Of a DNA stretch of 64,000 nt, positions 3,010 through 53,056 are shown piece after piece. Source of the stretch: Bdellovibrionales bacterium. GTDB taxonomy: Bacteria; Pseudomonadota; Alphaproteobacteria; Micavibrionales; Micavibrionaceae. A model generated the notes under the pieces. The model saw nothing but the letters and a program-made list of their open reading frames with translations, made no database searches and was not told the DNA's origin. Location: assembly GCA_037969035.1 (NCBI GenBank), contig JBBKWU010000021.1, positions 43,178-107,177 on the forward strand, in the 5' to 3' direction. The translations under genes and the position numbers were made by a program. The number at the start of each line of letters is the position of its first letter. The first letter of the stretch is position 1.

Positions 3010-3909
3010 ATGAGTGATATGTCCCTTGCTGAAGCCACAGAACAATTCAAAGAAGCACGCGTGCGTGATTACTTCGCGCTGCTCAAGCCGCGTGTGATGA
3101 GCCTTGTTGTCTTCACTGGATTTGCGGGCATGTGGGCGGCACCAAGCTTTAATATCATGCATCCGTTTTTGGCCTTTGTCGCCATGCTTTGCCTTGCCGT
3201 TGGGGCGGGGGCGGCGGGTGCCATGAATATGTGGTATGAGCGCGATATCGACGCCATTATGAACCGCACACGCGGACGGCCGATCCCGATGGGTAAGATC
3301 GAACCTGATGATGCTTTCAGCTTTGCGCTGTTTCTCTCTATTTTTTCTGTGATGATTATGGCGCTGGCGACCAATCTTGTCGCGGCGGCACTTCTTGCGG
3401 TGGCTAATCTGTTTTATGTGCTTGTTTACACCATGTGGCTCAAGCGCCGCACACCGCAAAACATCGTTATTGGTGGTGCGGCTGGTGCATTTCCGCCGAT
3501 GATTGGCTGGGCGGCGGTTACGGGTGATGTGACTTTGATGCCTATTTTGCTGTTTACCATTATCTTTCTTTGGACACCGCCGCATTTTTGGGCGCTATCA
3601 CTGTTTGCCAACGAAGATTATAAACGCGCGAAAATACCGATGATGACCGTCACTGCTGGCGAGAAAAGCACGAAACGCCAGATGCTGTTCTATACCTTGA
3701 TTTTGTTCCCTGTCACGCTTGCCCCTACTATTTTGGGCTTTGCGGGATATATTTATGGTGTGACCGCATTTTTCACAGGTCTGTTCTTTATATACACATC
3801 TATTCGGGTTATAATGGATGACAGTTTAAAGAGTGCCCGTTTAATGTTCGGCTACTCTGTGTTTTACCTTTTTGCTTTATTTTCAGGATTGATAATCGAT
3901 GCCACATAG
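3010..3909 (+). CDS. ctaB: protoheme IX farnesyltransferase (heme O synthase)
   Basis: 299 aa polytopic UbiA-type protein. Motifs: YFALLKPRVM, NMWYERDIDAIMNRTRGRPIP, PPHFWALS. It sits inside the cox cluster. Confidence 0.96.
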   Translation: MSDMSLAEATEQFKEARVRDYFALLKPRVMSLVVFTGFAGMWAAPSFNIMHPFLAFVAMLCLAVGAGAAGAMNMWYERDIDAIMNRTRGRPIPMGKIEPDDAFSFALFLSIFSVMIMALATNLVAAALLAVANLFYVLVYTMWLKRRTPQNIVIGGAAGAFPPMIGWAAVTGDVTLMPILLFTIIFLWTPPHFWALSLFANEDYKRAKIPMMTVTAGEKSTKRQMLFYTLILFPVTLAPTILGFAGYIYGVTAFFTGLFFIYTSIRVIMDDSLKSARLMFGYSVFYLFALFSGLIIDAT

Positions 3910-9690: not shown

Positions 9691-10173
9691 CTAGCCGAAT
9701 GTTGTATCAATCGATTCCAACGCCGACTCCAGATCCTCTTTCGGATCGGAGAGCTTCTTATTTACATCAATCATGACAAAAATGCCAAGAATAAGAAAAA
9801 ATAATGCGTCTATCGCGCCACTGTTTTCTGCATCGGTCTCAATAAACCCTGGCAGTAAGCCCACCAACAAAATAATGCTGAACAAAAGAGAGTATAAAAG
9901 CACCAAAGAAAACGCAACGCGGCTATAGCCAGAAATCAAAACCCGTGCTGTTTCTTTGTCTATATCGATTTTAATATCCAAATCCAGCTTCGCATGACGC
10001 GTCATGCTCGCGGGTGAGCCTGTCGTACCCTGTACAGAAAAATCTTCATCGCCTTCAGAGATGGATTTAAGCTCAATTGTCTTTTCAAGGCTTTCAAGCA
10101 AAAGCTTTTTAACATCACCAACAGAAGCCTTACGCTTTAACTGTATTTTTTTGGATACGGACAGATGTTTCAT
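9691..10173 (-). CDS. hypothetical membrane protein (160 aa, 2 predicted TM)
   Basis: The ORF has hydrophobic segments FSLVLLYSLLFSIILLVGLL and ALFFLILGIFVMI. I recognise no family. Confidence 0.55.
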   Translation of the reverse strand: MKHLSVSKKIQLKRKASVGDVKKLLLESLEKTIELKSISEGDEDFSVQGTTGSPASMTRHAKLDLDIKIDIDKETARVLISGYSRVAFSLVLLYSLLFSIILLVGLLPGFIETDAENSGAIDALFFLILGIFVMIDVNKKLSDPKEDLESALESIDTTFG

Positions 10174-10237
10174 TTATATTTCTGACTTCCTGATATCTTG
10201 CGATACCTGCTTGATAGAAAATTATGACTGTGAATTC

Positions 10238-10756
10238 TTAGATACCGCACTCTTTGGAAATGGCATCATGTGCCGCGCCAGAACCGCTCAGGCTGAACGT
10301 GTCTGTGGTTAGTGTACCACGTTTGGATGTGCCTTTAACCACCATTTTGCTGCCCTTGCGAATCGAATCGGTGATTTTATTGTCTGTTGAGGCATCTGGT
10401 GCCCACGCTGTTTCATCTTGCGTGAACAATGTGTAAGTCGTCGAATCGATCTTCACCGTGGCATCACTGCCCGCTTTATACGGATAACCCGTGATATAGC
10501 TGAATACGTTCTTTGTACCTTCGGCAGGGCGGTGCGTTACAAGCGCGTAAATTTTACCGCGAGCTTTATAATCACCTTCGTCTTTGTCTGGCTCACTCGC
10601 CATATAACAAACCTTGTTACCGTCTTCGGTGAACACAAAAGCTGACCATTTACCGAATGTGCCGAGCTCCGTCGGATCAGCCGCCTGTGCGGGTGCTGCC
10701 GCAAATGACAGTGCCAGTCCCAAAAGACCGCTTAACATTATGATCCGTTTACTCAT
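10238..10756 (-). CDS. secreted IalB-like (invasion-associated locus B family) protein
   Basis: Signal peptide MSKRIIMLSGLLGLALSFAAAPAQA. The blocks FGKWSAFVF..GNKVCYMASEP ... VVKGTSKRGTLTTDTFSLSG ... EC resemble the conserved alphaproteobacterial IalB-family protein. The family call is from memory. Confidence 0.6.
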   Translation of the reverse strand: MSKRIIMLSGLLGLALSFAAAPAQAADPTELGTFGKWSAFVFTEDGNKVCYMASEPDKDEGDYKARGKIYALVTHRPAEGTKNVFSYITGYPYKAGSDATVKIDSTTYTLFTQDETAWAPDASTDNKITDSIRKGSKMVVKGTSKRGTLTTDTFSLSGSGAAHDAISKECGI

Positions 10757-10925
10757 ACCAAATCCTTTTTTATTCAATTGAATGGTCATCTATCACCTAT
10801 TTAAATTCTGCTACTCTTAACTATGAAATCGTCAAATATGAAATCGCGTCAATGAATCTTGACCCTAAGACTGTTTGACTGATTATACAATGCTCTGCCT
10901 TATCTTTTAAACAAAAAATAATTTT

Positions 10926-10951
10926 TGATCCATTTTGTGCATTTTAACGTA
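10926..10951 (+). promoter_or_regulatory. putative ECF (RpoE/ChrR, ECF11-type) autoregulated promoter
   Basis: TGATCC-16 nt-CGTA lies about 95 nt upstream of the sigma factor ATG. It matches the -35 TGATCC / -10 CGTA pattern I recall for RpoE-ChrR type sigma factors. Confidence 0.45.
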
Positions 10952-11044
10952 CCAATACCATACAAGGAGATTATTTTGTCATTTTCAGGGCAATCACAGC
11001 GTTTTTCACTTTACGAGCAAGAAAATAACTTGCTAAATGCCTAT

Positions 11045-11635
11045 ATGATGCAGAAAAACAGTGCACACATCACGGATTCCGCCAATAATACCCCCTCGCA
11101 CGAGGATATGATTGTTGCCATTGCGGAAAAACAAGACAAAGACTCCTTTGTTGAGCTCTTTGAATATTTTGCGCCGCGCCTGAAGTCATTTTTGATGCGC
11201 GGCGGCACGAATCCTGATTTAGCGGACGAGCTGGCGCAAGAAACCATGCTGTCCGTTTGGCAAAAGGCAGGCAGCTTCAACCCCGACCAAGCCCGCGCCA
11301 GCACATGGATATTCACCATTGCCCGTAATAAACGCATTGATGCCTTTCGCAAGGCAAAACGCCCCGAGCCTGATATCGATAATTTCGAGATCGAAGACAA
11401 ATCCATTGTCATGCCCGATATCCGTATCACAAGCGATGAACAAGCCGCCGCCTTATCAATGGCGTTAAAAAGCCTACCCGAGGAACAAGCATCCCTCATC
11501 CGTAAATCATATTTCGAGGAAAAAACACATATGGATATCGCCGCCGAAGAAAACATACCGCTCGGCACTGTGAAGTCCCGCATTCGCCTCGCCTTGGATA
11601 AATTACGTCATAGTTTAGGAGGGCTAGAGCGATGA
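11045..11635 (+). CDS. rpoE: ECF subfamily RNA polymerase sigma-70 factor
   Basis: Region 2 (LAQETMLSVWQKAGSF...STWIFTIARNKRID) and region 4 (SYFEEKTHMDIAAEENIPLGTVKSRIRLALDKL) are present. I chose the ATG at 11045 because the track's TTG at 10925 overlaps the putative promoter. Confidence 0.9.
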   Translation: MMQKNSAHITDSANNTPSHEDMIVAIAEKQDKDSFVELFEYFAPRLKSFLMRGGTNPDLADELAQETMLSVWQKAGSFNPDQARASTWIFTIARNKRIDAFRKAKRPEPDIDNFEIEDKSIVMPDIRITSDEQAAALSMALKSLPEEQASLIRKSYFEEKTHMDIAAEENIPLGTVKSRIRLALDKLRHSLGGLER

Positions 11636-12336
11636 GCGAGAACGCCAAAGATATTTCGCACGATCATCTGGCACATCTGATGATGGATTATGCTTCTGGT
11701 GCGCTGGACGAAGGCTTTGCCCTTGTGATGGCATCTTATGTCAGCCTTTCTCCTGCTGCGTGTGCACAATTAAGACAGCTCGAAAGCATTGGCGGTGCAT
11801 TGCTTTGTCAAGATTGCGAGCCCGAAGATATGAAAGAAGACAGCCTGCAAAATGTTATGGCTCGTCTTGATGATTATCTGGAACAAATCGAAAAAAGCAC
11901 CGCCGAAACCTTGGAACAAGCCCATATGAATGTCAAAATCGACGTTGATTGCTGTATTCCAAAACCAATCACGCAACACATCGCCGCGCAAATGCCTGCC
12001 GCGCCCAAATGGTCGCGCCTGCTACCGGGCATCGAAGTCATCAATATCCCACTCAGCAAAAGCTGCGCCAACCAGCTCAAACTTATAAAACTTGATCCTG
12101 CGACCACGACCCCTGCGCATACGCATCGCGGGCTTGAAATCACCTTGGTTTTGGATGGGGCGTTTACCGATGAAACAGGTTCATACCCTGCGGGGTCAAT
12201 TCTCGCGCATGATGAGCATGTGCATCACCAGCCCGTATCTTGCCCGAAACAAGGCTGCGTTTGCCTTATCGCAACCGACGCACCCCTGCGCTTCACGCAA
12301 GGCCTCATGCGACTTTTAAATCCGTTTTTGAAATAA
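11632..12336 (+). CDS. chrR: ChrR-like anti-sigma factor (N-terminal anti-sigma domain plus C-terminal cupin)
   Basis: 4-nt overlap with the sigma gene. The N-terminus resembles ChrR (LMMDYASGALDEGFALVMASYVSL). The C-terminal cupin has HTHRGLEITLVLDG...HDEHVHH. Confidence 0.8.
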   Translation: MSENAKDISHDHLAHLMMDYASGALDEGFALVMASYVSLSPAACAQLRQLESIGGALLCQDCEPEDMKEDSLQNVMARLDDYLEQIEKSTAETLEQAHMNVKIDVDCCIPKPITQHIAAQMPAAPKWSRLLPGIEVINIPLSKSCANQLKLIKLDPATTTPAHTHRGLEITLVLDGAFTDETGSYPAGSILAHDEHVHHQPVSCPKQGCVCLIATDAPLRFTQGLMRLLNPFLK

Positions 12337-38455: not shown

Positions 38456-38959
38456 ATGCGCGTTACACTTGCAGAATTAATGGATAAACTAGGCGTCGGA
38501 TACGAAATGGGTCCTTACGAAACCATGCCTTGGTCACATTATGATTCAGAAAGCGGCATCACATGCAGCGCGGAAATTCGTATGGGTGCCGATGCCGATG
38601 AAGTCGATGGTGAAATACAAACCATGTATGACACACCACCCGAGGGCAAAGCATCATTCGAAAGCACTTGCACCTTGGTTGCCACCCCCAAAAGCGATAA
38701 AATGTGGGATATCGATACATTTACAATCCGCGGTGAAGCCTTCGAAGAAGATGCTTATGATCATTCTATCAAAGCCGCTAAGTTTTTCTCGGAAGTCGTT
38801 CGCGCGTTAATGGCCGGTGAAATTCCCGACATTGATGAATTGCTAGATGAAGCCTTCCGCAAGGGTGAGCGTTTTGCAGGAAGCGGTAGCGGCGGTAGCA
38901 AAGCCCCGAAACTTCGCGGCGCGCAACTTATGGGCATAAAAAAAGGCGGCGGCAGATAA
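38456..38959 (+). CDS. hypothetical protein (167 aa, acidic, Gly/Lys-rich C-terminus)
   Basis: A clean ORF. I recognise no family. Confidence 0.5.
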   Translation: MRVTLAELMDKLGVGYEMGPYETMPWSHYDSESGITCSAEIRMGADADEVDGEIQTMYDTPPEGKASFESTCTLVATPKSDKMWDIDTFTIRGEAFEEDAYDHSIKAAKFFSEVVRALMAGEIPDIDELLDEAFRKGERFAGSGSGGSKAPKLRGAQLMGIKKGGGR

Positions 38960-38996: not shown

Positions 38997-39983
38997 TTAG
39001 CCTGTATCTTCGGTAATCAACATACCGTAGCTTTTGGCGACTTCTATATGACCGCCTGCAATCGGTTTGGCTTCGGCCTCAAAATACCATTTTGGTCCTT
39101 CACGCACCAACGATCCGACTTCGATGGCTTTTGCGCCCGCCATATCCACATCCGCAATCTCAAAACAAAATATTTCCAAACCATCGGCGTTATTACCCAG
39201 TCGGAAATAAACACTGCGAACACTTTCAAGCGAGAACCCTTCGAGCTTTTCGTCATAGACAGAAAGAACAAAGCGAATTTTTTGAACATCGAACGGCACG
39301 CCGCGAAGATCAAGGAACATGCGTTCATCATCACCATCGCCTGCGCCTGTACGGCTATCTTCAAGAAGTTTAACCGCGCCATCACAAGCCATTTGATTAT
39401 TGTAAAAAACAAAATCGCCGTCTTCGCGCGTTTTCTCATCCTTGTTCAATAAGAACAGGCTGAGATCCACATCGACAGGCGCATTTTCAAATGAGCGTTG
39501 ATCCCAACCTGCGCCGACATAAACATCGTGAAGTGTGGGGTCGTGCGCAAGAAGGTCAAAATAGTCACCTTTTTTAATGAGCGTACGTTCGCCGATTTCT
39601 AAAAATTTTGAGTTCTTTTCTTCCTCTGCGTCAATGTCTTTTAAAAAGCGTGCTTCGGCGAGCTTGTTGGCGTCCATTGTTGCCGCAGCGTCTTTATCCT
39701 TATCACCCATGAGGTCATCAAGATTAGACGGCACAGCTCGTCCCGCGGGTGGCTCACCTTCCGCGTCTTTATTCTCTGCTGTTGCCTCAAGTGCAGGATC
39801 TTTTGGCATATCAGGTGCAGGGTTTGGCGCGGGGCTTGGTTCTGGATTCGATCTAAGGGGCGGCGGCGCAAGACTAGGCGTGCGCAAAGGATCCCCCTGA
39901 AGATCGATCGGCTTTATCGTATCATCGTCATCATCCCAAAATTTGTCGAACTTGCTTAGTTCATCGTCATCATCGCCACTCAT
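38997..39983 (-). CDS. TerD-domain protein with ~130 aa acidic/proline-rich N-terminal extension
   Basis: The C-terminal ~190 aa have YVGAGWD...VDVDLSLFLL...DFVFYNN...DSRTGAGDGDDERMFLDL...KIRFVLSVYD, the TerD beta-sandwich with its Ca-binding GDGDDE loop. Confidence 0.85.
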   Translation of the reverse strand: MSGDDDDELSKFDKFWDDDDDTIKPIDLQGDPLRTPSLAPPPLRSNPEPSPAPNPAPDMPKDPALEATAENKDAEGEPPAGRAVPSNLDDLMGDKDKDAAATMDANKLAEARFLKDIDAEEEKNSKFLEIGERTLIKKGDYFDLLAHDPTLHDVYVGAGWDQRSFENAPVDVDLSLFLLNKDEKTREDGDFVFYNNQMACDGAVKLLEDSRTGAGDGDDERMFLDLRGVPFDVQKIRFVLSVYDEKLEGFSLESVRSVYFRLGNNADGLEIFCFEIADVDMAGAKAIEVGSLVREGPKWYFEAEAKPIAGGHIEVAKSYGMLITEDTG

Positions 39984-39986
39984 GCG

Positions 39987-40985
39987 TTACATCCCCTTAT
40001 GCACTAAACTGAAACCGTATAGATATGTTGCCACCATATAAACAAGATACCCCAATAAAAACAGATACCCCAGCGGCTTTGTAACCTTTTTATAAAATAA
40101 CAGAATGATCGTAAACAAAGCACTAATGCCAAGCGTGACCCAAATATCAAGAGCCATCAATTGCGGTTCTAAATCACCCGTAACATATGGTTTTATCGCA
40201 CCCGTCACACCCAAAATCATCAAAATATTAAAAACGTTCGAGCCAATAATATTACCCACGACCAAATCACTTTGTCCACGACGTGCCGCGATAATACATG
40301 TGGTCAGTTCAGGCAAAGATGTTCCGATCGCAATAACGCTTAAACCGATCACAGCCTCAGGAACACCGAGCACCGTTGCGCTAACTTTCGCGCCGCGCAC
40401 CAAAAATTCAGCACCCAATGCAATGGCGGCTAGACCCAGCAGCAGATAAATCATGGCTGTACGGAAGCTCGCAAATTCTGGGTTTTCAACGTCCTCGACA
40501 GGGATATCCCCCTTACGCGACATATAATATTGCCACAGCACATAGGCCGCGAGCAAAACAACCATTGCAACCGCCATCAATTGTGAAATGCCGCCCCAAA
40601 CAAACAGCCCCACCAACAAAACAGTGGCAAACATCATCATCACCAAGTCACGCAGTAGCGCGCGTGGCACAACATGGATAGTGGCAATCGCCGCCGTGGC
40701 ACCAATCACCAACAAGATATTGGCGATATTTGACCCAATCACATTACCAACCGCAATCCCCGAAGATCCCGATAGATGCGCCGTAAGTGAAACCAAAAGC
40801 TCAGGAAAAGATGTTCCGAATGCCACAATCGTAAAACCAACAACAAGCGGTGAAATACCAAAATGTCGCGCGACAAAAACCGCACCGTCAATACACCAAT
40901 CACCACCCTTAATCAACATGATCATCCCAAAACCAAGACAACCGATGGCAAGCAAAAAGGCTTCTATCATTGTGAATTCCATCAT
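39987..40985 (-). CDS. CaCA family Na+/Ca2+ (K+-dependent type, YrbG-like) exchanger
   Basis: 332 aa with about 10 TM helices. Both alpha-repeats are present: FGTSFPELLVS...GNVIGSNIANILLVIG and IGTSLPELTT...GNIIGSNVFNILMILG. Confidence 0.92.
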   Translation of the reverse strand: MMEFTMIEAFLLAIGCLGFGMIMLIKGGDWCIDGAVFVARHFGISPLVVGFTIVAFGTSFPELLVSLTAHLSGSSGIAVGNVIGSNIANILLVIGATAAIATIHVVPRALLRDLVMMMFATVLLVGLFVWGGISQLMAVAMVVLLAAYVLWQYYMSRKGDIPVEDVENPEFASFRTAMIYLLLGLAAIALGAEFLVRGAKVSATVLGVPEAVIGLSVIAIGTSLPELTTCIIAARRGQSDLVVGNIIGSNVFNILMILGVTGAIKPYVTGDLEPQLMALDIWVTLGISALFTIILLFYKKVTKPLGYLFLLGYLVYMVATYLYGFSLVHKGM

Positions 40986-41034
40986 TAAGCGTACATACTC
41001 TTTGTTAGTAATTAATCATTTAAGTTGCCCGCTA

Positions 41035-41814
41035 TCAGGCTTGTGATTTTTGGCCGTCAGCCCATTCCAGACCAAACCCAAAGGCGCGATCCATTTCCGC
41101 ATGGCCAGGGTAGTACTCTGTGTAATTTGTGAGACGTACACCACCGCGCACTTGCTCTAACCCCGCAACAGCACACAATGAAAGCTCTGATTTATATGTA
41201 TGTAATTTTACGATCATCGGTTTTTCACCGGGCACACGAATTTGTATTTGCGGTTGAATTTCCGCCCAATTCACGGCACCTTCGTAAATATAAAGATAAA
41301 CCATAAGGCGCTTTATCTGTGGCCATTTTTTACCGTTAATCAAAATAATTTCATCTTCGCCATCATCATCGTCATCATCATCGCCCGTGCGATCATCATG
41401 CGAGAGTTTCATAAACGGCTCATCATTGTAATCACCAAAATGTTCACCAAAAGCTTGTATAGAACCGCGCTCGCCATTTTCAAGCTCGTACAGGCATCCT
41501 AAATCCAAATCAACGCCCTTAAATTTTTTCGGTTTCTTGGTTTTTTTGCCGAGTAGTTTATTTAAAAAGCCTGTGGGTTTCTCCTCGTCGCCATCATGGA
41601 TATTCTGCCATGCCGCGCCGATGCGGATTTCTTTGTAACCACCTTCTTGTGGTTGAATAATATCAACCTGTCCCGTTTCACCCAGATAATTATAGGAATT
41701 ATCGTCCGTATGGGACACATACCCCGCCGCGCCCAAAGCGCTACGGCCTGTAAAGCTTGAACGGCTTTTACTTGCTTCTGCTAATGAATCTACCGATGAT
41801 TTATCGCGTGACAT
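41035..41814 (-). CDS. divergent TerD-like domain protein with a poly-Asp insertion
   Basis: VDLDLGCLYELENGERGSIQAFGEHFG...LSHDDRTGDDDDDDDGEDEIILING...IKRLMVYLYIYEG matches the TerD-family pattern seen in the actinobacterial type (DLDLGC...GDDRTG...GE). The family call is from memory. Confidence 0.7.
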   Translation of the reverse strand: MSRDKSSVDSLAEASKSRSSFTGRSALGAAGYVSHTDDNSYNYLGETGQVDIIQPQEGGYKEIRIGAAWQNIHDGDEEKPTGFLNKLLGKKTKKPKKFKGVDLDLGCLYELENGERGSIQAFGEHFGDYNDEPFMKLSHDDRTGDDDDDDDGEDEIILINGKKWPQIKRLMVYLYIYEGAVNWAEIQPQIQIRVPGEKPMIVKLHTYKSELSLCAVAGLEQVRGGVRLTNYTEYYPGHAEMDRAFGFGLEWADGQKSQA

Positions 41815-44482: not shown

Positions 44483-44501
44483 GTCATTCAATTTTAAAGA
44501 T

Positions 44502-44541
44502 AAAAAATGTCGCTCGCATTATTGTGGCGCGGCATTTTTTA
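44502..44541 (+). terminator. probable rho-independent terminator after ettA
   Basis: aaaaaATGtCGC-13 nt loop-GCGcgGCATtttttt begins 20 nt after the stop codon. The stem is imperfect and is followed by a T-run. Confidence 0.55.
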
Positions 44542-44556
44542 TTGCCTAACGACCTG

Positions 44557-44593
44557 TTTAGATTGGAAAATTTAATCTAAAACGTGCTATAAT
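44557..44593 (+). promoter_or_regulatory. putative extended -10 promoter (TGcTATAAT) with an adjacent 8-bp inverted repeat, upstream of the paralogue array
   Basis: The inverted repeat is tttagatt-9 nt-aatctaaa (44557-44581). It is followed by tgcTATAAT (44585-44593), about 100 nt before the GTG at 44692. There is no good -35 element. Confidence 0.35.
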
Positions 44594-44691
44594 AAGTGAG
44601 ACGAATAATAAAACGGACTTTAATAAAATTTTATATAGTTTCCGTGTATGATATTGTTGGCGTGTAATATAAAAAAATCAGGTGTGAGTGA

Positions 44692-47439
44692 GTGCTGCAG
44701 GCAAATGACATTAAACCATATTTAAAGCCTAAAAAGGTTCTCGGCTATATGTTTATGCCGCGGATTATTCCGCGCATCAAAGAATTAGTCGGTAGTGGTT
44801 TTGGGTGGGTTGCCATGCTTATGGCGATCATCTATCAGTCTGTTCGCTTGTTACCGCCCGCACACCCTTATACGAACCCTGCCAATAAAGGGAAGTTCGG
44901 CATAAGGCATGTTATCGTCGAAGCTTGGGGCAATCTGACATTCAAACGCGCAAACATCGACCAAATCGTGATTTTCTGCCTGCTTCTTCTCGGATTCATT
45001 TTGCTCGGGTTTCAAATTGGGGGTCTGCTATTGGGTGCTATCATCCAGCCTGCTTTCGCTATTCCTGGCTTTCTAGGGCTTTTTGCAACGCCTAATCCAA
45101 CCAACGATATTGCTTTCATGATTTTGGATCAGGTGTTTGGGATTCCCAATCTATATAACTCCAAATTTGGCCCCACGGGCCCCGGCACCATTCCTTTGTT
45201 CCAACAAGGTCTGCATGTTTTATTCAGCTATTACAGCACGATGATTTTGATCGTTGCTGTGTTTGTTTTGCTGTATTACGTTGTCATCACGCTTGGTGAA
45301 ACAGCAACAACAGGTGTGCCGTTCGGGCGCAGATTTAACTCCATTTATGCACCATTACGCCTTGTGGTTGCTGTCGGCCTTTTGGTTCCCGTTAATTATG
45401 GCTTAAACACCGCGCAATACATTACGCTATTTGCCGCGAAGTACGGTTCTAGTTTTGCAACAAACGGGTGGATACTGTTCGCCAACAGCGTTGCAAACCC
45501 CTCTAGTACGCAAGACGAGTCACTGCTCGCGCGCCCAACCGTTCCTGACGTCAAACATATTGTAAAATTTATGATGCTTGTTCAAGCGTGTCGCGTGGCT
45601 TACGAGCGCTTATATGATGGCTCTAGCTATAATGGTCAAGTTATAACCATTGAACCATATTATGTGAGTTCACTTGCTCCAGCCCAAGTTGTTCCAGTAC
45701 CAATTACACCGGCGGACTGGCAAGCAGCGGTCACATACTACAACAACAGTGATATTATTATTCGTTTTGGTCATGAAGATGCCGCAGAATATCCGCTGGA
45801 AAAAAGTAATGTTTACCCATATTGCGGTGAGATCACGATTCATACCACATCGAATGATGGCATTGCTGGTGTAACAAATGCCGCCGAAGAAGTCCAATAC
45901 CGGTATCTATGGTTAATCCGCCAGCTTTATTTTAGCACCTTTTTTAGGGATTTCGGAGAGCGTGCCTTCAGGGTTAGCATAAAAATTGGCTCGACTCCAC
46001 TTGATCCTTGCGCGATCACCTTTGTGGGAGAGGTAAGCTGTACCACACCGACCGCACGCTTGCCGCCCGAAGAGTATAAAGTCAGTGCGTATGTTGGTAG
46101 AAATACCGCATTTTTAAATCAAGTTAAAAACGCTTATGATAATGCAAATAATGGAACGTATGCCACAGCATATACTGTGCCCCCAGCTTTACTGGACAGA
46201 GGATGGGGTGGGGCAGCGATCTGGTACAACCAAATTGCCGAATGGAACGGTGCATTTACAGCGGCGACACTTAACGTTCCAACACCAAGTAAACTGCCGT
46301 CCGTTATGGAAAAAGTTGCAAAGGAACGTGATTCAAACGATCAAACCGTTGAGTCGGGGCACCGCTATCGCCCTTATCTATCAAATAATCAAAAGGTGGA
46401 ATTTGACCTGGGTGGGGAACATGACATTGCGGTGATGTTGAATGAGTCCTACGAATACTGGGAAAAAAGCGATAGTAGTGAATGGACGGATATGCAAGAA
46501 TCCGGAAATATTATCATCGCGACACTCAGCCGTATTTTTGGCTTAAACGGCTTATTCGATATGCGTGACAACCCAGACACACACCCGCTCGCATCACTTG
46601 TGGCGGCGGGTAAAGGCATAATTGAGAGTGCCATTCGTAACCTTATGATTGGTCTTGGATTTGGGTTTGCTGGTGGTGTTGCTGGTGCATTTGACCCCCA
46701 TATTGGTGGATTTTTAGGTGCCGTTTCAGGCATGCTCGTTTCGTTTTCCACGATTGGTATCACAGTTGGGTTTGTGCTGTATTATATTTTACCGTTTATG
46801 CCATTCATGTATTTCTTCTTTGCCGTCGGCGGTTGGGTGAAATCCATTTTCGAAGCACTTGTCGGTGTTCCCCTATGGGCACTTGCGCACTTACGCATTG
46901 ATGGGAATGGTATTCCAGCAGACAATGCCTCTGCGGGTTACTTCCTGATTTTTGAAATTTTTGTAAGACCTATTTTAACCGTTTTCGGATTATTGGGCGG
47001 CATGGCCATTTTCACCGCTATGATGCGTGTCATGCACGATATTTTCCCGCTTGTCGTTGCCAACTTAACTGGTTTTGATGCCAGTCTTGACGATAAAACA
47101 GGCACGATTATGGGGATTGAATATAAGCGCGATATCATCGACGAATTTATGTTCACCATTATCTACACAATTGTGGCGTACATGATTGCGACATCAAGTT
47201 TTAAAATGATTGACCAAGTACCAAACAGCATCATGCGTTGGATGGGTGCAGGCATACAATCATTCAACGACCAACGCGATGACGCCGTCCCTGGACTTGT
47301 ACAATACGCGGGTATCGGTGGTTATGGTATGGCAAACCAAGTGACTGGTGCTTTGCAGCAAGGAGCAACAGGTGCGGGATCGGTTATAGGAACGGGCGGC
47401 AAGGCTTTATTTGGTCTTGGTACGCGCGCAGGCAAATAG
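44692..47439 (+). CDS. large polytopic membrane protein, paralogue 1 of 3 (possibly DotA/TraY-like; function unknown)
   Basis: 915 aa. GTG start with an aggtg RBS 7 nt upstream. The N-terminal (~4) and C-terminal (~5-6) hydrophobic helices flank a ~380 aa hydrophilic domain. It shares long motif blocks with the next two ORFs. Confidence 0.85.
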   Translation: MLQANDIKPYLKPKKVLGYMFMPRIIPRIKELVGSGFGWVAMLMAIIYQSVRLLPPAHPYTNPANKGKFGIRHVIVEAWGNLTFKRANIDQIVIFCLLLLGFILLGFQIGGLLLGAIIQPAFAIPGFLGLFATPNPTNDIAFMILDQVFGIPNLYNSKFGPTGPGTIPLFQQGLHVLFSYYSTMILIVAVFVLLYYVVITLGETATTGVPFGRRFNSIYAPLRLVVAVGLLVPVNYGLNTAQYITLFAAKYGSSFATNGWILFANSVANPSSTQDESLLARPTVPDVKHIVKFMMLVQACRVAYERLYDGSSYNGQVITIEPYYVSSLAPAQVVPVPITPADWQAAVTYYNNSDIIIRFGHEDAAEYPLEKSNVYPYCGEITIHTTSNDGIAGVTNAAEEVQYRYLWLIRQLYFSTFFRDFGERAFRVSIKIGSTPLDPCAITFVGEVSCTTPTARLPPEEYKVSAYVGRNTAFLNQVKNAYDNANNGTYATAYTVPPALLDRGWGGAAIWYNQIAEWNGAFTAATLNVPTPSKLPSVMEKVAKERDSNDQTVESGHRYRPYLSNNQKVEFDLGGEHDIAVMLNESYEYWEKSDSSEWTDMQESGNIIIATLSRIFGLNGLFDMRDNPDTHPLASLVAAGKGIIESAIRNLMIGLGFGFAGGVAGAFDPHIGGFLGAVSGMLVSFSTIGITVGFVLYYILPFMPFMYFFFAVGGWVKSIFEALVGVPLWALAHLRIDGNGIPADNASAGYFLIFEIFVRPILTVFGLLGGMAIFTAMMRVMHDIFPLVVANLTGFDASLDDKTGTIMGIEYKRDIIDEFMFTIIYTIVAYMIATSSFKMIDQVPNSIMRWMGAGIQSFNDQRDDAVPGLVQYAGIGGYGMANQVTGALQQGATGAGSVIGTGGKALFGLGTRAGK

Positions 47440-47506
47440 GCAGGGTCATAATTAACAATTAGTCATAACAATAGACAAATGAGACAAAACAAATAAAAGG
47501 CAAACT

Positions 47507-50368
47507 ATGTTTTTAATGTTAACCAAAGGACAAATTTTTCGCTACTTAGTGATGCCGGAGTTTCTTCCGCGCATTAAAGAGTTGTTTGGCTCAGGCTTTG
47601 GACACATTGCATTTTTTATTGCCCACATATACCGTGCAGCGCGCCTTCTTCCAAAGTTTCACCCTTATTTGAATCCTACGAATATTGGACGTTTTAACAT
47701 ACAAAACGTTATTAGTGAGGCCGCCAAAAATTTAAAATTCAAAAAAGACAACACGGATCAGATCATTATCTTTTTTATAATTCTGCTCGGTCTTGTTGTT
47801 CTTTTGGCGCAATGCGCGACCCTTGTATTGGGGTTGTTCTTTTTAAACTCTGCTCATGCAACAATACCGTTAAACTTTTTCCAATTTTTTCAAACAATCC
47901 AACCGCCCGACAATGATGTTGCCTTCGTACTTTTAGATATGGTGTTTGGTGTTCCTGACTTTTTCAACTCTTGTGTTTCCAAAGGTGTTGTATGCTTTGA
48001 AAAAGGTGCGAATAATATGGTCAGCGGATTACCTGGAAACGCGAACGCCACATACGATGCCTACTCTGACTACAACCGCTTGGTATCCGTTGGTGCCTAT
48101 CCGTTTCCGACCCCCTTCCATGAAGCATTGCGCAATATGATGCAGCTTTATAGCATCGGCCTTTTGGTCATCGCGATGCTTATCTTTATATATTTCATAA
48201 TCGCCATCGTTGCAGAAACTGCGCAAGAAGGTACACCGTTTGGCAGACGTTTCAACAAAGTTTGGGCGCCGCTACGTATGGTTATGGCACTCGGGTTATT
48301 GATCCCGATCACAAATGGTTTAAATAGTGCCCAATACATTGTGCTCTATGCTGCTAAATTCGGATCAAACTTTGCAACAAATGGCTGGGTTATATTCACA
48401 GACACCGTTGTCACAGGAACAAATACATTACTCGGCGATCAAAACGATCTGGTTGCTACACCGCGAACGCCCGAAGTTAACGCGCTAGTCGAATTCTTTA
48501 CGATCATGGCCACCTGTATCCGCGCTGAATTATTGGTCAATAGCCGAACGGTGCTGCCATGGCACGTTATTCCTAATAGTGGCACAGGACCAAACGTCCT
48601 CCCTGCGTTGCAGGGCACAACATTTGCGCAAGCTCTGGCATTTTACGAGAACAGAGATATCTTGATTGTATTTGGTGACCAAACAGTCAGAACCGATGGC
48701 AACGATGTATCCGCATCTTATCAGGGCGGTATTGCGCCCGTTTGTGGCTCCATTGTTTTACCGATACCGACGGTAAACCAAACAGATGGTCCGGGCGCAT
48801 GGCAGGTGACAGAACAATATTACGAGTTACTTTTAACCCCCTTATGGAATCAAGCTTTCACGGCGGGTGCCGCCTGTTCGGGCCCTGCCTGTCCTGTGCC
48901 TCCCGTCGGCTTCTGGAGTCCTACTGGAGGAACGCCAGGCTGGCTCAGAGAAATCGGTAGTAATATGGTTTTGAAATATATTCCCGATGCCGCGGATGGT
49001 ATGACACCGCCAACCGCGCTAACCTCAGATACCGTTGGCAATCCGACCATAGCCACCTTACAGGGCTTCATAGACATGTTCCAAACAAACCCCTTTGGTA
49101 TCGCTGGCATAACCCCCATAGAAACAATACTGGCAGACGCCGTCTTATTAACAGCAACCAGCGGCAATTGGACTTACGATCTCCAAGAACTTGGCTGGGG
49201 TGGTGCGGGTATTTGGTACAATAAGCTTGCCCAACTGAACGGTGCACTTGTCGCGTCGGCCTATAAACTTCCTTACATTAAAGAGTACCCAATACTCATG
49301 CAAGATGCCCATGCAAAACGGTTAGCTGCAAACGCATCCGTTATGGGATATGACCGTTTTAATCCTTATTTGGCAGAAGAAGAAACCGTCGAGACAAATC
49401 AGCCGGGTGATACAAACATACAAATAGCACTATATAATTCACAAGTAATTTGGAAAGATGTCTATACAAATGCATCAACGAACTTCTTTGTGGACTCGAT
49501 CATTGCTGTTTTTGGGCTCGATGGTCTTTTCAACATGGTTGACAACCCGACAATACACCCTCTGGCACAGTTGGTTGCCATCGGGAAAAGTCTTGTTGAA
49601 AGTTCGATCAGAAACCTTGGATTCTCCTTTATTGCCGGCGCCGTTGGTATCGCCGCGCAAGGCACGCCATTTGGCCCGCTCGCAGATGTTGCCAGCAGCT
49701 TTGCCTCAAGCATCGGCTTGATTGGTTTGGGCGTTGGGTTTGTTCTGTTTTACATTATCCCGTTCTTGCCGTTTATTTACTTCTTTTTTGCGGTTGGTGG
49801 ATGGGTCAAAGGTATTTTTGAAGCCATGGTTGGCGTGCCGTTATGGGCGTTGGCGCACATTCGTATCGACGGCAACGGACTACCGGGCGATGCGGCGATG
49901 GGTGGTTACTACCTCATTTTGGAAATTTTCCTGCGGCCGATATTGATCATCTTCGGATTAATCGCGAGTATTATCATTTTCTCAGCACAGGTAAAAGTTC
50001 TCAACGAAATATGGTCATTGGTTACAACCAACCTCAGCGGTTTTGATGATGCTAAGGCCAAAACTGTCGGTGCTGGTTTAACGGGTGCTGTCGAATATAT
50101 GCGCGGCCATGTCGACCGTTTCTTCTTTACAATTATATATGCCATCATTGTTTATCTTCTAGCGATGTCATCGTTCAAATTAGTGACACTGATCCCTAAT
50201 AACATTCTTCGCTGGATGGGAGCCAACGTACAGTCATTCGGTGACCAGAGCGATGATCCGGCACAAAACCTTGTTCGGAACACCATGTTGGGCAGTAACA
50301 TCGCTACCCAAAGCGTGGGTGGCTCAATCGGACGCTTGAAGGGTTCCCTGACTGGTGGCGGCGGTTAA
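47507..50368 (+). CDS. large polytopic membrane protein, paralogue 2 of 3
   Basis: 953 aa. ATG start with an aaagg RBS 6 nt upstream. It has the same architecture and motif blocks (GSGFG, PFGRRFN, GWGGAGIWYN, FFFAVGGWVKGIFEAMVGVPLWALAHIRIDGNGLP). Confidence 0.88.
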   Translation: MFLMLTKGQIFRYLVMPEFLPRIKELFGSGFGHIAFFIAHIYRAARLLPKFHPYLNPTNIGRFNIQNVISEAAKNLKFKKDNTDQIIIFFIILLGLVVLLAQCATLVLGLFFLNSAHATIPLNFFQFFQTIQPPDNDVAFVLLDMVFGVPDFFNSCVSKGVVCFEKGANNMVSGLPGNANATYDAYSDYNRLVSVGAYPFPTPFHEALRNMMQLYSIGLLVIAMLIFIYFIIAIVAETAQEGTPFGRRFNKVWAPLRMVMALGLLIPITNGLNSAQYIVLYAAKFGSNFATNGWVIFTDTVVTGTNTLLGDQNDLVATPRTPEVNALVEFFTIMATCIRAELLVNSRTVLPWHVIPNSGTGPNVLPALQGTTFAQALAFYENRDILIVFGDQTVRTDGNDVSASYQGGIAPVCGSIVLPIPTVNQTDGPGAWQVTEQYYELLLTPLWNQAFTAGAACSGPACPVPPVGFWSPTGGTPGWLREIGSNMVLKYIPDAADGMTPPTALTSDTVGNPTIATLQGFIDMFQTNPFGIAGITPIETILADAVLLTATSGNWTYDLQELGWGGAGIWYNKLAQLNGALVASAYKLPYIKEYPILMQDAHAKRLAANASVMGYDRFNPYLAEEETVETNQPGDTNIQIALYNSQVIWKDVYTNASTNFFVDSIIAVFGLDGLFNMVDNPTIHPLAQLVAIGKSLVESSIRNLGFSFIAGAVGIAAQGTPFGPLADVASSFASSIGLIGLGVGFVLFYIIPFLPFIYFFFAVGGWVKGIFEAMVGVPLWALAHIRIDGNGLPGDAAMGGYYLILEIFLRPILIIFGLIASIIIFSAQVKVLNEIWSLVTTNLSGFDDAKAKTVGAGLTGAVEYMRGHVDRFFFTIIYAIIVYLLAMSSFKLVTLIPNNILRWMGANVQSFGDQSDDPAQNLVRNTMLGSNIATQSVGGSIGRLKGSLTGGGG

Positions 50369-50412
50369 TTTATGAACACGACCATTAGTCAGCAACACAT
50401 AAGGGGTACATA

Positions 50413-52962
50413 TTGAACATCACAACCCGAAAAGCTCTTCGCACTGTTTTACTGCCCGGGATACTTCCTCGGGTACGTGATCTTTTTGGTTCTGGTTTCA
50501 GCTATCTGTCACTTTTTATTGCGCAGGTTTTTTTCGCGGTTCGTTTACTACCTGCTAATCACCCTTATCTCAATCACGCGAATACAGGGCGCTTTGGTAT
50601 CCGCCATGTGATCTCCGAAGCACGACGTAATTTGGTTTTCAAGTGGGATCGCTTGGACCAAATTATTGTATTTTTCCTGATTATTATCGGCATATTTATG
50701 TTGCTCGGGCAGTTTGCTTTATTAGTTTTTGCACTGTTTACACAGGCCGCGCACGCAAGCCTTGCCGCCTATTACGCTTCATTTTTTGTAACAGCACTCC
50801 CGAATAACGATATTGCATTTATGACACTGGACCGTGTTTTTGGAATACCTGGGATGTTTCAATCAAAAGTGGATGTTGCATCCTTTGATGGCCCCTTCCC
50901 AAGCCCGTTTCACACAGGTCTACATACTCTGTTGATGTTTTATAGTATCGGGATTTTTACCGTCGCAATTATCTTGATTTTATATTTTGCCATTACCATT
51001 GTTGGTGAAACAGCAGAGTCTGGAACCCCTTTCGGGAAGCGTTTTAATCCATGGTTCGGCTTGCGTTTTGTGATTGCTATTGCCGCTTTGGCACCCATTT
51101 ATATGGGGATGAGCCTTGGGCAATTAACAGTACTGAGGATGGCAAAATTAGGGTCAAGCGTTGCCACCAATGGCTGGATTTACTTTAATAACGCGCTCAC
51201 TGGTGAAACATTAGGCGGTACACCAGCACAGCTTGTCTCCATTCCAAATGAGCCAGACATCAACACCTTGATTGAATTTATGTCGGTTGTACAGACATGT
51301 AAGATTGCTGAAGATAAAATGCACAACCGTACAATTGAGGCGTATCTCGTCTATAATAACAATGCTGCCGCTCGGGCTTTTAGTGGCTCGACATTCATTC
51401 AAGCCCTTGCAGACTCAGGAAATAACAATTTCATTATACGGTTTGGGATAGAGAATGCCGTAGATTATCCACTTGAAAAAGGCAATGTTGCACCGATTTG
51501 TGGTGAATTAAACTTCCTTATTACCGACGCAGAAGAAGATGGTGCGATGTCACTTCAAAGTGACTACTATGACTTCATCGATACATTATGGACGGATGGC
51601 CTAATTTTTGCTAATGCCAACAACATGGCGTTACGTTTACTTCCAATGATGGACAAAGACCCGTTTGCGCTTATGCCGGACGCTGCCTATATCACGGCAC
51701 AACGATCATTATATATGGCAGACATAGCCAGCGCCATTTCAGCCGCCGTAACGGCGCAGATCGCAAGTGGTAAATGGGCTGCCAATACAACAGATCGCGG
51801 TTGGGCAGGAGCGGCCATTTGGTACAACCTAATCGCACAGCTCAATGGCGGCCTTATTGCTTCGGCGCGTAATCTCCCGACACCCGCACTTTATCCTGCC
51901 GTCATGGAACAAGTAAAAGAACAGCGCAAAGCGGCAGATGAGCAAGTCACACCCCATGAACGTTATAAACCTTATTTATCAGACGGAACCATGGTTGATT
52001 TTTATATGCCTGAAGATATGTACATCTCGGTTCTGCTATATTCCGCACAGGCTCTATGGTTTGATAAAGCTGAAATTGAGGCATCAGGCAATATTCTGAT
52101 TGATATGGTGAATATGATTTTCGGGACAAAGGGTATCTTTGACATCATAGAAAATACAAATATTCACCCCCTAGCGCAAATTGTCGCGATTGGTCGCGGT
52201 TTAATCGAAAGCGCGATCGTCAATTTAGGGTTTGCCTTTGGTGGCTTTGTGGCGGGCGGTCTTGGTAACATTTTTGGTGACTTCATTGGGGTCCTCGGTA
52301 AGGTGGTTGCTGGATTTTCAACAAAAATTGCGATGATCGGTCTATCTTTGGGCTTTATTCTTTTCTACGTCGTACCATTCATGCCCTTTCTCTACTTCTT
52401 CTTTGCCTTTGGCGGTTGGATCAAAAGCATATTTGAAGCGATCGTTGGTATCCCTTTATGGGCTTTGTCACTTATTAGGATAGACGGTGAAGGCATTCCC
52501 GGTCCCAACGGCATGAACGGCATATGGCTGGTTTTTGAGATATTTTTAAGACCCATTCTGATTATTTTCGGCTTTATTGCTGCGGTGGTGATCTTTTCCG
52601 CATTGGTAAAAACATTGCACGAAATATGGTATCTGGTGGTTACAAACTTGACAGGTAACGACATGGCAACGGTAACGCCTACTGGCCCAGGCAGTATTGC
52701 ATATTACAGGCATCCCATCGATCAATTCTTCTATACAATTTTGTACGCCATTGTTGTTTATGTGATCGGCATGTCATGTTTTAAACTAATTGATGCTATT
52801 CCAAACACCATGCTGCGCTGGATGGGTCAAAGCGTTCAGACATTCCAAGAATCAGATCGAAACCCTGCAGAAAGCATTGTACAGACTCTATTTGGCGGCA
52901 CACAGGCGGTTATGGGGCAAGCCTCAGGTGCCTTTGGTAGTTTACTGGGTCGAAACCGTTAA
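50413..52962 (+). CDS. large polytopic membrane protein, paralogue 3 of 3
   Basis: 849 aa. TTG start with an aagggg RBS 6 nt upstream. It has the same architecture and motif blocks (GSGFS, PFGKRFN, GWAGAAIWYN, FFFAFGGWIKSIFEAIVGIPLWALSLIRIDGEGIP). Confidence 0.85.
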   Translation: MNITTRKALRTVLLPGILPRVRDLFGSGFSYLSLFIAQVFFAVRLLPANHPYLNHANTGRFGIRHVISEARRNLVFKWDRLDQIIVFFLIIIGIFMLLGQFALLVFALFTQAAHASLAAYYASFFVTALPNNDIAFMTLDRVFGIPGMFQSKVDVASFDGPFPSPFHTGLHTLLMFYSIGIFTVAIILILYFAITIVGETAESGTPFGKRFNPWFGLRFVIAIAALAPIYMGMSLGQLTVLRMAKLGSSVATNGWIYFNNALTGETLGGTPAQLVSIPNEPDINTLIEFMSVVQTCKIAEDKMHNRTIEAYLVYNNNAAARAFSGSTFIQALADSGNNNFIIRFGIENAVDYPLEKGNVAPICGELNFLITDAEEDGAMSLQSDYYDFIDTLWTDGLIFANANNMALRLLPMMDKDPFALMPDAAYITAQRSLYMADIASAISAAVTAQIASGKWAANTTDRGWAGAAIWYNLIAQLNGGLIASARNLPTPALYPAVMEQVKEQRKAADEQVTPHERYKPYLSDGTMVDFYMPEDMYISVLLYSAQALWFDKAEIEASGNILIDMVNMIFGTKGIFDIIENTNIHPLAQIVAIGRGLIESAIVNLGFAFGGFVAGGLGNIFGDFIGVLGKVVAGFSTKIAMIGLSLGFILFYVVPFMPFLYFFFAFGGWIKSIFEAIVGIPLWALSLIRIDGEGIPGPNGMNGIWLVFEIFLRPILIIFGFIAAVVIFSALVKTLHEIWYLVVTNLTGNDMATVTPTGPGSIAYYRHPIDQFFYTILYAIVVYVIGMSCFKLIDAIPNTMLRWMGQSVQTFQESDRNPAESIVQTLFGGTQAVMGQASGAFGSLLGRNR

Positions 52963-53011: not shown

Positions 53012-53056
53012 ATACAAAAAACCTGCATGGCGATGAGCGATGCAGGTTCATTTATT
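53012..53056. terminator. bidirectional hairpin terminator between paralogue 3 (+) and mlaC (-)
   Basis: A perfect 9-bp stem aacctgcat / atgcaggtt (53020-53028 and 53040-53048) has an 11-nt loop. On the minus strand it is followed by tttttgtatt, and on the plus strand by catttatt. Confidence 0.65.

Follow-up and report, generated by a model that had tools for sequence, protein, structure and literature searches.

The stretch of DNA analysed here, 64,000 nucleotides of contig JBBKWU010000021.1 (hereafter the window), carries a tandem array of three co-directional open reading frames (ORFs) whose products belong to the DotA/TraY family of type IV secretion system (T4SS) membrane proteins, preceded by a promoter/operator-like element (Table 1). 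The ORF list gives exactly the three lengths put forward in an earlier reading of the letters alone (the original prediction) and the same spacing, i.e. gaps of 67 nt (47440-47506) between genes 1 and 2 and of 44 nt (50369-50412) between genes 2 and 3. A ribosome-binding site had been proposed for each gene, and a Shine-Dalgarno-like motif (AGGTG, AAGG and AAGGGG) is seen 5' of each of the three starts. The products had also been called unmistakable paralogues because of their shared motif blocks, all of which are reproduced in a three-way alignment in which the proteins are ~42% identical (identity to protein 1) and the helix bundle, the putative ring-forming part, is nearly identical among the three. 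The shared blocks are LPR..L.GSGF, RLLP..HPY, NDIAF..LD.VFG, GETA..G.PFGRRFN, GWGGA.IWYN and HPLA and, further, PFMPF.YFFFA.GGW.K.IFEA.VG.PLWAL, RWMG and a Gly-rich tail.

A hairpin in the spacer between gene 3 and mlaC is a probable bidirectional terminator ending the operon; it was read directly from the sequence, the hairpin scan having covered loops of ≤8 nt only. At the other end of the array, an imperfect hairpin (AAAAAATGTCGC … GCGGCATTTTTT) lies at 44500-44540, directly 3' of the stop codon of ettA; as the probable terminator of that gene it would set ettA apart from the array's own promoter region. The region is almost certainly a single operon of three ancient DotA/TraY paralogues, forming a DotA-family triad module.

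Table 1. Coordinates of the array genes, the upstream element and associated signals. Positions are those of the window unless a locus label (L-number) is given.
Feature	Position	Strand	Description
Gene 1	44692-47439	+	915 aa, GTG start; DotA/TraY-family paralogue, array position 1
Gene 2	47507-50368	+	953 aa, ATG start; DotA/TraY-family paralogue, array position 2, two extra periplasmic-domain insertions
Gene 3	50413-52962	+	849 aa, TTG start; DotA/TraY-family paralogue, array position 3
N-terminal module of gene 1 (residues 1-123)	44692-45060	+	Basic region of ~85 aa, then hydrophobic transmembrane segment TM0 ending in conserved PAxA
Promoter/operator-like element	44616-44660	+	Palindrome ATAAAATTTTAT at 44623-44634; TAAAAT, 17 nt, then -10-like TATGAT at 44647-44652
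Further copies of the element	L008:15669-15700; L041:12747-12788; L059:3522-3549; plus 33 further loci		
Sigma-70-like site	44564-44593	+	TGGAAA-18-TATAAT with TG; best consensus match in the ettA/gene 1 spacer
Hairpin in the gene 3/mlaC spacer (convergent genes)	53020-53048	.	9-bp stem AACCTGCAT/ATGCAGGTT, 11-nt loop, A-run left, T-rich right

The original prediction likened the layout of the three proteins to DotA/TraY, and profile and fold comparisons bear the likeness out. TIGR04346, the NCBIfam subfamily model for DotA/TraY, scores proteins 1, 2 and 3 at 248.2, 241.6 and 230.5 bits, all above its curated cutoff of 100 bits; the match covers positions 5-656 of the 656 in the profile for protein 1 and 25-656 for protein 3, and in protein 2 it falls into two stretches split by that protein's insertions. 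Chance is excluded by the NCBIfam E-values (4e-68 to 2e-73), together with more than 1,700 representatives at E ≤ 1e-30 (1,784 clusters in an exhaustive representative search). The equivalog model for Dot/Icm DotA, NF033886 (T4SS_DotA), gave 136, 161.6 and 134.2 bits against a cutoff of 500, with an alignment limited to the C-terminal ~230 residues, and Pfam returned no family at E ≤ 1 for any of the three proteins and no TrbL/VirB6 domain. When a profile of the three proteins was searched against PDB sequences, the sole match was Legionella DotA (9ngy/9nh0), confined to membrane segments; the core motifs common to both are the E in IFEA/VIEA, FLRP, RW.G and an E-G..G loop.

An AlphaFold (AF2) model of protein 1, built with 118 homologues, reached a pLDDT of 84.6 and a pTM of 0.78, and Foldseek aligned it to DotA in the in-situ DotA-IcmX protochannel (9ngy) over 923 columns with an E-value of 5.3e-13, a probability of 1.00 and TM-scores of 0.44/0.46. 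DotA was the only fold match with E ≤ 0.001, chains of VirB6/TrwI from R388 (PDB 7o3v) appearing at background level only (E 0.5-2.6, probability 0.2-0.4). Across Pfam, NCBIfam and Foldseek there was no confident match to any family outside the T4SSs, the kind of match that would have told against the proposal. Public annotation pipelines already label such proteins 'DotA/TraY family protein'.

Legionella DotA, the subunit at the centre of the type IVB machine, starts with a signal peptide and TM1-TM2, which are followed by a large periplasmic domain rich in disulfides and by five long hydrophobic helices, and it forms the inner-membrane/periplasmic protochannel, a pentameric hollow chamber beneath an IcmX pentamer, with a hydrophobic interior in the DotA-IcmX channel (Yue et al. 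2025); a 2025 review classes DotA as the VirB6 equivalent. In the array proteins a TM1-TM2 hairpin whose short loop is basic (GxPFGRRFN) is followed by an acidic middle domain with mostly even cysteine counts, then by long helices and a Gly-rich tail, the order being that of DotA. Their hydrophobic helices, up to 64 residues long, cluster at both ends of the protein in the model and in the hydrophobicity data, as originally described.

Ahead of this DotA-like part lies the N-terminal module. The first 85 residues of protein 1 hold 11 K+R and 2 D+E and are followed by TM0 at approximately residues 90-118; P23, P27, R28, G36, F37, H58, Y60, D90, Q91 and A123 are invariant. The TIGR04346 match in protein 1 begins only at residue 144 and alignments with plasmid DotA/TraY proteins begin at residues 109-138 of the window proteins. 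Since the end of TM0 (…QPAFA|IP) is aligned with the signal peptide (…MPAFA|DG) of a protein from a Burkholderia gladioli plasmid, TM0 appears to be the counterpart of the signal peptide of DotA, and the conserved PAxA, with its invariant A123, may be a signal-peptidase site. The part that is truly clade-specific is the conserved basic region of ~85 residues ahead of TM0. No Pfam, PDB-sequence or fold relative of the module was found, and its reading as a VirB3-like or other small T4SS subunit was dropped, as no such relative supports the likeness.

The proteins are most conserved within the membrane: 118 residues reach a conservation of ≥90% of sequences over all three array positions (slots), 78 of them lying in membrane helices, and variation is greatest in the periplasmic domain (mean conservation 0.34), which has median lengths of 409, 371 and 372 aa in slots 1, 2 and 3. 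A search of the aligned array proteins for fixed residues specific to a slot found none, so that sub-functionalisation cannot be argued from signature residues.

The lineage of this DNA is Micavibrio-like, a point missed by the original prediction, and the Micavibrio group includes cultured obligate epibiotic predators of bacteria. A profile search returned hundreds of near-full-length relatives, the few named ones being metagenome-assembled genomes (MAGs) called Micavibrio, Rhodospirillales, Alphaproteobacteria or 'Bdellovibrionales', the last because Micavibrio is placed in Bdellovibrionales/Pseudobdellovibrionaceae by the NCBI legacy taxonomy. Species-representative genomes, when scanned, gave 75 loci, nearly all Micavibrio-like and including the complete chromosome of the cultured M. 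aeruginosavorus HCB189 (L008). The census used below comprises 78 loci and the window (79 arrays) with flanks of ±10 kb, 1.63 Mb in total. One locus (L051, JBQDYD010000001.1, a contig of 563 kb) is titled 'Alcanivorax sp. MAG10' and has a DotA-like array in typical Micavibrio-like ettA/mla/lpt synteny; wrong labelling or wrong binning of this MAG is probable.

All 79 loci contain DotA-like genes. Exactly three full-length co-directional copies occur in 57 of the 79 and four copies in 6, the remainder being cut by contig ends, i.e. all 63 complete arrays have three or four tandem copies. In the four-copy loci (L005, L007, L015, L025, L010 and L066) the best-match patterns ABBC, AABC, ACCC and BABB indicate that extra copies arise by duplication of different members and that three is the norm. 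The nearest relative of an array protein was the same-slot protein of another genome in 169/171 cases, and the same slot made up 99%, 82% and 86% of the ten nearest neighbours for positions 1, 2 and 3. A neighbour-joining tree contained large pure clades (38, 27 and 34 of 57) and not three perfectly monophyletic groups, and clustering by the unweighted pair group method with arithmetic mean (UPGMA) failed to separate the slots at low cluster numbers. Judged from these comparisons, the slots are ancient orthologous lineages in a fixed order. Paralogues within one genome are 34-53% identical and identity to the nearest protein between genomes is 53-56%, a divergence similar to that of the neighbouring lptFG and pepA genes and for that reason fitting vertical inheritance under purifying selection. 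The concern that the triplet might not be conserved is thus answered by its presence in every locus with slot orthology.

The upstream element was found de novo from 8-mers that are over-represented upstream of gene 1 at a fixed distance from the gene. It spans ~45 nt with the consensus AAATTTAATAAAATTTTATCTAT…TA..AT, and in the window it has promoter geometry with the palindrome at the -35 position. The 12-mer ATAAAATTTTAT occurs 23 times in the 1.63 Mb, and 21 of the 23 occurrences are at this position upstream of gene 1. All matches of a sequence-only model at E<0.01 are on the coding strand and immediately upstream of DotA-like genes, with none elsewhere in the 1.63 Mb: 36 loci, spanning different genomic contexts and including two outside the training set, have it before gene 1, and three (L008, i.e. 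M. aeruginosavorus, L041 and L059) have a second copy before gene 3. The copy in the window scores 29.4 bits (E 1.4e-6). This newly found element is read as a dedicated promoter/operator that moves with the array, and a regulator binding ATAAAATTTTAT would therefore be implied.

A reading of the leader as an RNA element was rejected, there being no Rfam match and no consensus RNA structure. No sigma-54 or sigma-28 sites were found upstream of the arrays, and full CtrA boxes, in 6/62 loci against 2.3 ± 1.5 in shuffles (shuffle maximum 6), are not convincingly enriched, so that these promoter-site searches gave no link of the array to a known swarmer or flagellar regulon. The sigma-70-like site in the ettA/gene 1 spacer is a weak candidate for a second or alternative promoter, promoter-like sites being no more numerous in this region than in shuffles.

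The window also encodes cytochrome oxidase, an extracytoplasmic function sigma factor with ChrR, FzlA, a DivJ-like kinase, PutA, XseA, a TerD-CaCA-TerD cluster and EttA, with MlaC, MlaA, LptG, LptF, PepA, HolC and PheA 3' of the array. NCBIfam and Pfam scans of approximately 50 of its ORFs found housekeeping families and no T4SS, relaxase, integrase or transposase gene, five ORFs being without any family match, and the GC content across the region is not deviant. The original prediction had described housekeeping neighbours (ettA on one side; mlaC, mlaA, lptG and lptF on the other) and the absence from the window of dot/icm, tra, virB, relaxase, integrase and transposase genes, and both statements stand. 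Over the census, too, the array is kept and has no T4SS partner within 10 kb. The commonest context is that of the window, with ettA upstream in 56 loci and mlaC, mlaA and lptFG downstream and convergent in 46-47 of the 79. The array is also found in at least eight unrelated contexts, whose recurrent neighbours are again all housekeeping (Tag glycosylase, TetR, the ribonucleotide reductase small subunit, an M48 peptidase, MltA, EarP and EF-P), and across contexts nothing is conserved beside the array except the upstream element. The neighbouring mla/lpt genes are on this comparison ordinary conserved synteny, not partners, and their adjacency was discarded as a functional link in view of the convergent orientation and its loss in at least eight contexts.

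As a positive control, the DotA/TraY gene of the best plasmid match lies among genes for DotD/TraH, a DotC-like protein, a DotB-type ATPase, a coupling protein and a lytic transglycosylase. In a tblastn search the 22 proteins that flank DotA/TraY on the type IVB secretion system (T4BSS) plasmid had no match in the 1.63 Mb around the 79 arrays; of the full set of 23 proteins the plasmid DotA/TraY alone matches, in 79/79 loci. The triplet is not linked to any other T4SS gene in the window or within 10 kb in the 79 loci.

A complete type IVB or conjugation system elsewhere in the genome, which the three proteins might simply serve, is not reported for M. aeruginosavorus ARL-13. Its genome paper (2011; PMC3189940) reports neither a type III nor a type IV secretion system, and no conjugal, VirB, VirD4 or type IV secretion entry occurs in the complete ORF table; the sole ATPase of the type II secretion/type IV pilus family seen there belongs to the Tad/Flp pilus cluster, and the 'ICEs' (integrative and conjugative elements) of ARL-13 are small integrase/mobilisation islands. 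The triplet is probably independent of a T4SS, the genome-wide absence of such a system being taken from the literature. Among open-access papers, a literature search found none that mentions both Micavibrio and DotA.

Expression in ARL-13 was read from the RNA-seq table of the same paper (PMC3189940), where GMV_198, GMV_197 and GMV_196, 'putative membrane proteins' of 2742, 2763 and 2694 nt, have attack/attachment indices of 3.6/2.8, 4.8/1.7 and 11.9/3.9. These genes are flanked by an ettA-sized ATP-binding cassette gene and an M50 peptidase on one side and by Ttg2 (mlaC) and vacJ (mlaA) on the other, and their identification with the array relies on synteny and gene length in comparison with HCB189 (L008) and not on sequence. 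Their housekeeping neighbours are at ~0 in attack phase and go up in attachment phase (PMC3189940). The triplet, with its genes matched by synteny and length, is transcribed and attack-phase biased in ARL-13, which answers the objection that it might not be expressed, and the higher index of the third gene fits the second promoter element that precedes gene 3 in M. aeruginosavorus. Two other attack-phase observations come from the same table (Additional file 4): GMV_199, the M50-family peptidase between ettA and the array in M. aeruginosavorus, is attack-phase biased (3.2/0.7), and the pilin of the attack-phase Tad/Flp pilus cluster GMV_530-538 is among the most highly expressed genes.

Several other genes of the window or of the array neighbourhoods were recorded. 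Just upstream of ettA, a cluster at 38997-41814 (-) encodes a TerD-domain protein, a CaCA Ca2+/Na+ antiporter and a second TerD-like protein, and is present in 38 loci; beside it a conserved 167-aa ORF without family match (38456-38959) is found in 27 loci, and together they may form a calcium or stress module. A protein of ~1,600-1,760 aa without Pfam domain is encoded upstream of tag-DUF3137-ettA in 11 loci (e.g. L051:440-5227), and one of 1,727-1,780 aa with a weak Lcl_C match directly downstream of the array in one lineage (L002/L047:13267-18609); these very large products encoded near the array may be adhesins or other proteins of the surface. A peptidoglycan hydrolase is a usual part of T4SSs, and an MltA-type lytic transglycosylase gene lies immediately 3' of the array and co-directional with it in four loci of one sublineage (L050, L073, L076 and L078; L078:13008-14201). 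This MltA is of the housekeeping type and its adjacency to the array is not general. An IalB (invasion-associated locus B) family protein is encoded at 10238-10789 (-), beside a 160-aa ORF without family match.

The closest known relatives, DotA of the Legionella/Coxiella Dot/Icm systems and TraY of IncI, share with the array proteins a full-length family model, the overall fold, the element order, which ends in the helix bundle and a cytoplasmic tail, and the helix-bundle motifs. Identity is only 15-23% (21-23% with plasmid DotA/TraY), and DotA/TraY is a single gene on a plasmid or island whereas the array comprises three ancient paralogues in chromosomal housekeeping synteny. None of IcmX, DotG, DotB, DotO, DotL and DotC/D is near the array, in contrast to the T4BSS partner genes that flank plasmid DotA/TraY. 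The array proteins further differ in the extra basic N-terminal region of ~85 aa and in a periplasmic domain of ~360-410 aa as against ~530 aa in DotA, and the array has its dedicated upstream element. In plasmids, DotA/TraY was found at 3,850 places in 3,831 records, i.e. it is approximately single-copy, and 3,209 of the 3,831 are predicted to be conjugative; a second plasmid tblastn search with protein 2 as query gave nothing beyond the first. On the tests run, the locus does not qualify as part of a T4BSS, nor are its proteins equivalogs of Dot/Icm DotA.

For channel-subunit paralogues in tandem the nearest precedent, by analogy, is the rvh system of the Rickettsiales, in which five tandem extended-VirB6 paralogues, RvhB6a-e (674-1154 aa), serve a scattered type IVA secretion system. 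They too are several large, anciently diverged channel-subunit paralogues kept in tandem across an alphaproteobacterial lineage, one whose cultured members, like those of the Micavibrio group, depend on intimate contact with other cells. RvhB6a-e carry the VirB6/TrbL domain, whereas the array proteins lack TrbL in Pfam and belong to the type IVB DotA/TraY family, and rvh genomes hold RvhB3, B4, B8-B11 and D4, whereas no VirB-like genes are in the window or within 10 kb of the arrays. VirB6/TrwI of the minimal type IVA system, from the R388 stalk (7o3v), is a functional analogue of DotA, a pentameric platform with N-proximal helix anchors and its bulk in the periplasm, but at ~300 aa it has no large periplasmic domain and works with VirB5 and pilin, of which no equivalents were found here.

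Small mobilisable plasmids do carry DotA/TraY genes in the absence of any visible T4SS machinery of their own. A 26.7-kb MOBP plasmid of B. gladioli (L079, NZ_CP022211.1) has a lone DotA/TraY gene at 9989-12160 and no other T4SS gene annotated, and a 19-kb Xanthomonas plasmid (H4/H5) likewise has a lone one. Such genes differ from the array in being single-copy and beside a relaxase gene, with a product of 723 aa that has an ordinary signal peptide and no N-terminal extension; these plasmids presumably exploit the T4SS of a helper plasmid.

The overall best explanation, with a probability of about 0.5, is that the array encodes an autonomous DotA-derived chamber of the inner membrane and periplasm, built from the three paralogues and vertically inherited as a self-contained module. 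Each protein would insert in the inner membrane with its basic N-terminal region in the cytoplasm, as the positive-inside rule predicts, and TM0 would be either a signal-anchor or cleaved at PAxA; next would come, as in DotA, the TM1-TM2 hairpin, a periplasmic domain with disulfide bonds and the bundled, very long hydrophobic helices. Through the highly conserved helix bundle the subunits would oligomerise into a DotA-like ring or chamber, an assembly considered reasonably likely, and this would act as a gated passage through inner membrane and periplasm that needs no canonical T4SS. The 'hetero-oligomeric envelope channel' of the original prediction is compatible with the data, and the array is a concrete candidate for an undescribed envelope channel. 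Since it is expressed already in attack phase, such a chamber may serve a contact-dependent transfer needed for epibiotic predation; a role in prey contact is nevertheless tentative and on balance doubtful.

Several points weigh against this explanation. Legionella DotA needs the DotG cage and IcmX for assembly (Yue et al. 2025), and an autonomous DotA-like complex is without precedent; nor is a route across the outer membrane evident. By TM-score the likeness to DotA is moderate (0.44-0.46), at 15% identity, and with no slot-specific fixed residues there is no direct sign of hetero-oligomerisation. The genome-wide absence of a T4SS rests on the 2011 paper and on annotation that could miss divergent components. 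The match to GMV_196-198 rests on synteny and length, and the RNA-seq indices are low, no replicate information having been found for them. Moreover, one Micavibrionales MAG has been proposed to be photoheterotrophic and predator status is not known for all members of the order, which makes the link to predation weak.

Whether the three paralogues act together is a matter of balance. Copy number and order are fixed and the operon is tight, for which reasons co-assembly is modestly favoured over three separate homo-oligomeric DotA-like chambers that would differ in their periplasmic domains and thereby in partner or cargo specificity or in timing. Separate chambers, rather unlikely overall, would accord with the same universally conserved residues in all three proteins and the lack of slot-specific ones, by which each looks individually competent, and with a periplasmic domain that is the most variable part and differs in length by slot; four-copy arrays exist, and the second promoter element before gene 3 in some lineages and the higher expression of gene 3 hint at partly separate regulation. 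However, copy number is held at three with a fixed slot order across the lineage, the gaps are of 44-67 nt and the helix bundle is nearly identical among the paralogues, all of which co-assembly predicts, though none is decisive. A dispersed complete T4SS elsewhere in the genome could instead use the three proteins as VirB6-class subunits, as in Rickettsia, where the tandem RvhB6a-e paralogues serve a working scattered system. The dependence of Legionella DotA on DotG and IcmX would fit this, as would an ARL-13 annotation that dates from 2011 and is rich in 'hypothetical' proteins, the scans made here having covered the window and the flanks of the arrays. Yet neither a type III nor a type IV system was found by the ARL-13 authors, their ORF table has no such entries, no T4BSS protein is detectable within 10 kb of the 79 arrays or in the window, and in canonical systems the partners flank DotA/TraY; a dispersed system is therefore unlikely.

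The position of mlaC, mlaA and lptFG directly downstream in 46-47 of the 79 loci raises the alternative of an envelope-lipid or lipopolysaccharide trafficking device, in which lipids would pass with Mla (mlaC, mlaA) and Lpt (lptG, lptF) through the hydrophobic lumen of a DotA-like chamber; the DotA-IcmX channel does have a hydrophobic interior (Yue et al. 2025) and T4BSS machines have recently been linked to lipid mixing. This is very unlikely, because the mla/lpt genes are on the opposite strand and convergent with the array, the adjacency is lost in the other contexts with the array intact, lipid mixing in Legionella requires DotG and not DotA, and the mlaA and lptFG-sized genes of ARL-13 follow the attachment-phase housekeeping pattern, unlike the triplet. 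As DotA/TraY genes are overwhelmingly plasmid-borne (3,831 records, 3,209 conjugative) and ARL-13 has several integrase-bearing islands, the array might also be imagined as a decaying, functionless remnant of an integrated conjugative element or plasmid. The chance of this is negligible: the ORFs are intact in the 79 loci, with 118 residues at least 90% conserved, lineage-wide slot orthology and housekeeping-like divergence, GC content is normal with no integrase or transposase nearby, and the genes are transcribed and have a dedicated conserved upstream element. A mobile-element relic is effectively refuted by the conservation data, with expression in addition. The autonomous chamber can also be taken further than the explanation preferred here. 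In this bolder form the triad, as a hetero-oligomeric DotA-like chamber descended from the central T4BSS channel, would be a minimal envelope-crossing machine without ATPases, coupling protein or outer-membrane core, the long-sought conduit by which epibiotic predators such as Micavibrio inject into or drain their prey, and one that is pre-assembled in attack-phase cells under a regulator on ATAAAATTTTAT; this is decidedly unlikely.

DotA/VirB6-class proteins are known only as parts of T4SS machines of 12 to 27 components. The lineage-wide retention of three DotA paralogues under strong selection, with a promoter element of their own and without a visible T4SS, implies that either this protein class can act autonomously or a partner machine has gone unrecognised, and either answer would change the understanding of the T4SS channel core and its evolution. 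On the means by which prey is breached, the ARL-13 authors could offer no more than speculation about haemolysins. With GMV_196-198 and their orthologues there is now a specific, lineage-wide, attack-phase-expressed and genetically tractable candidate for how epibiotic predators breach their prey or extract its contents.

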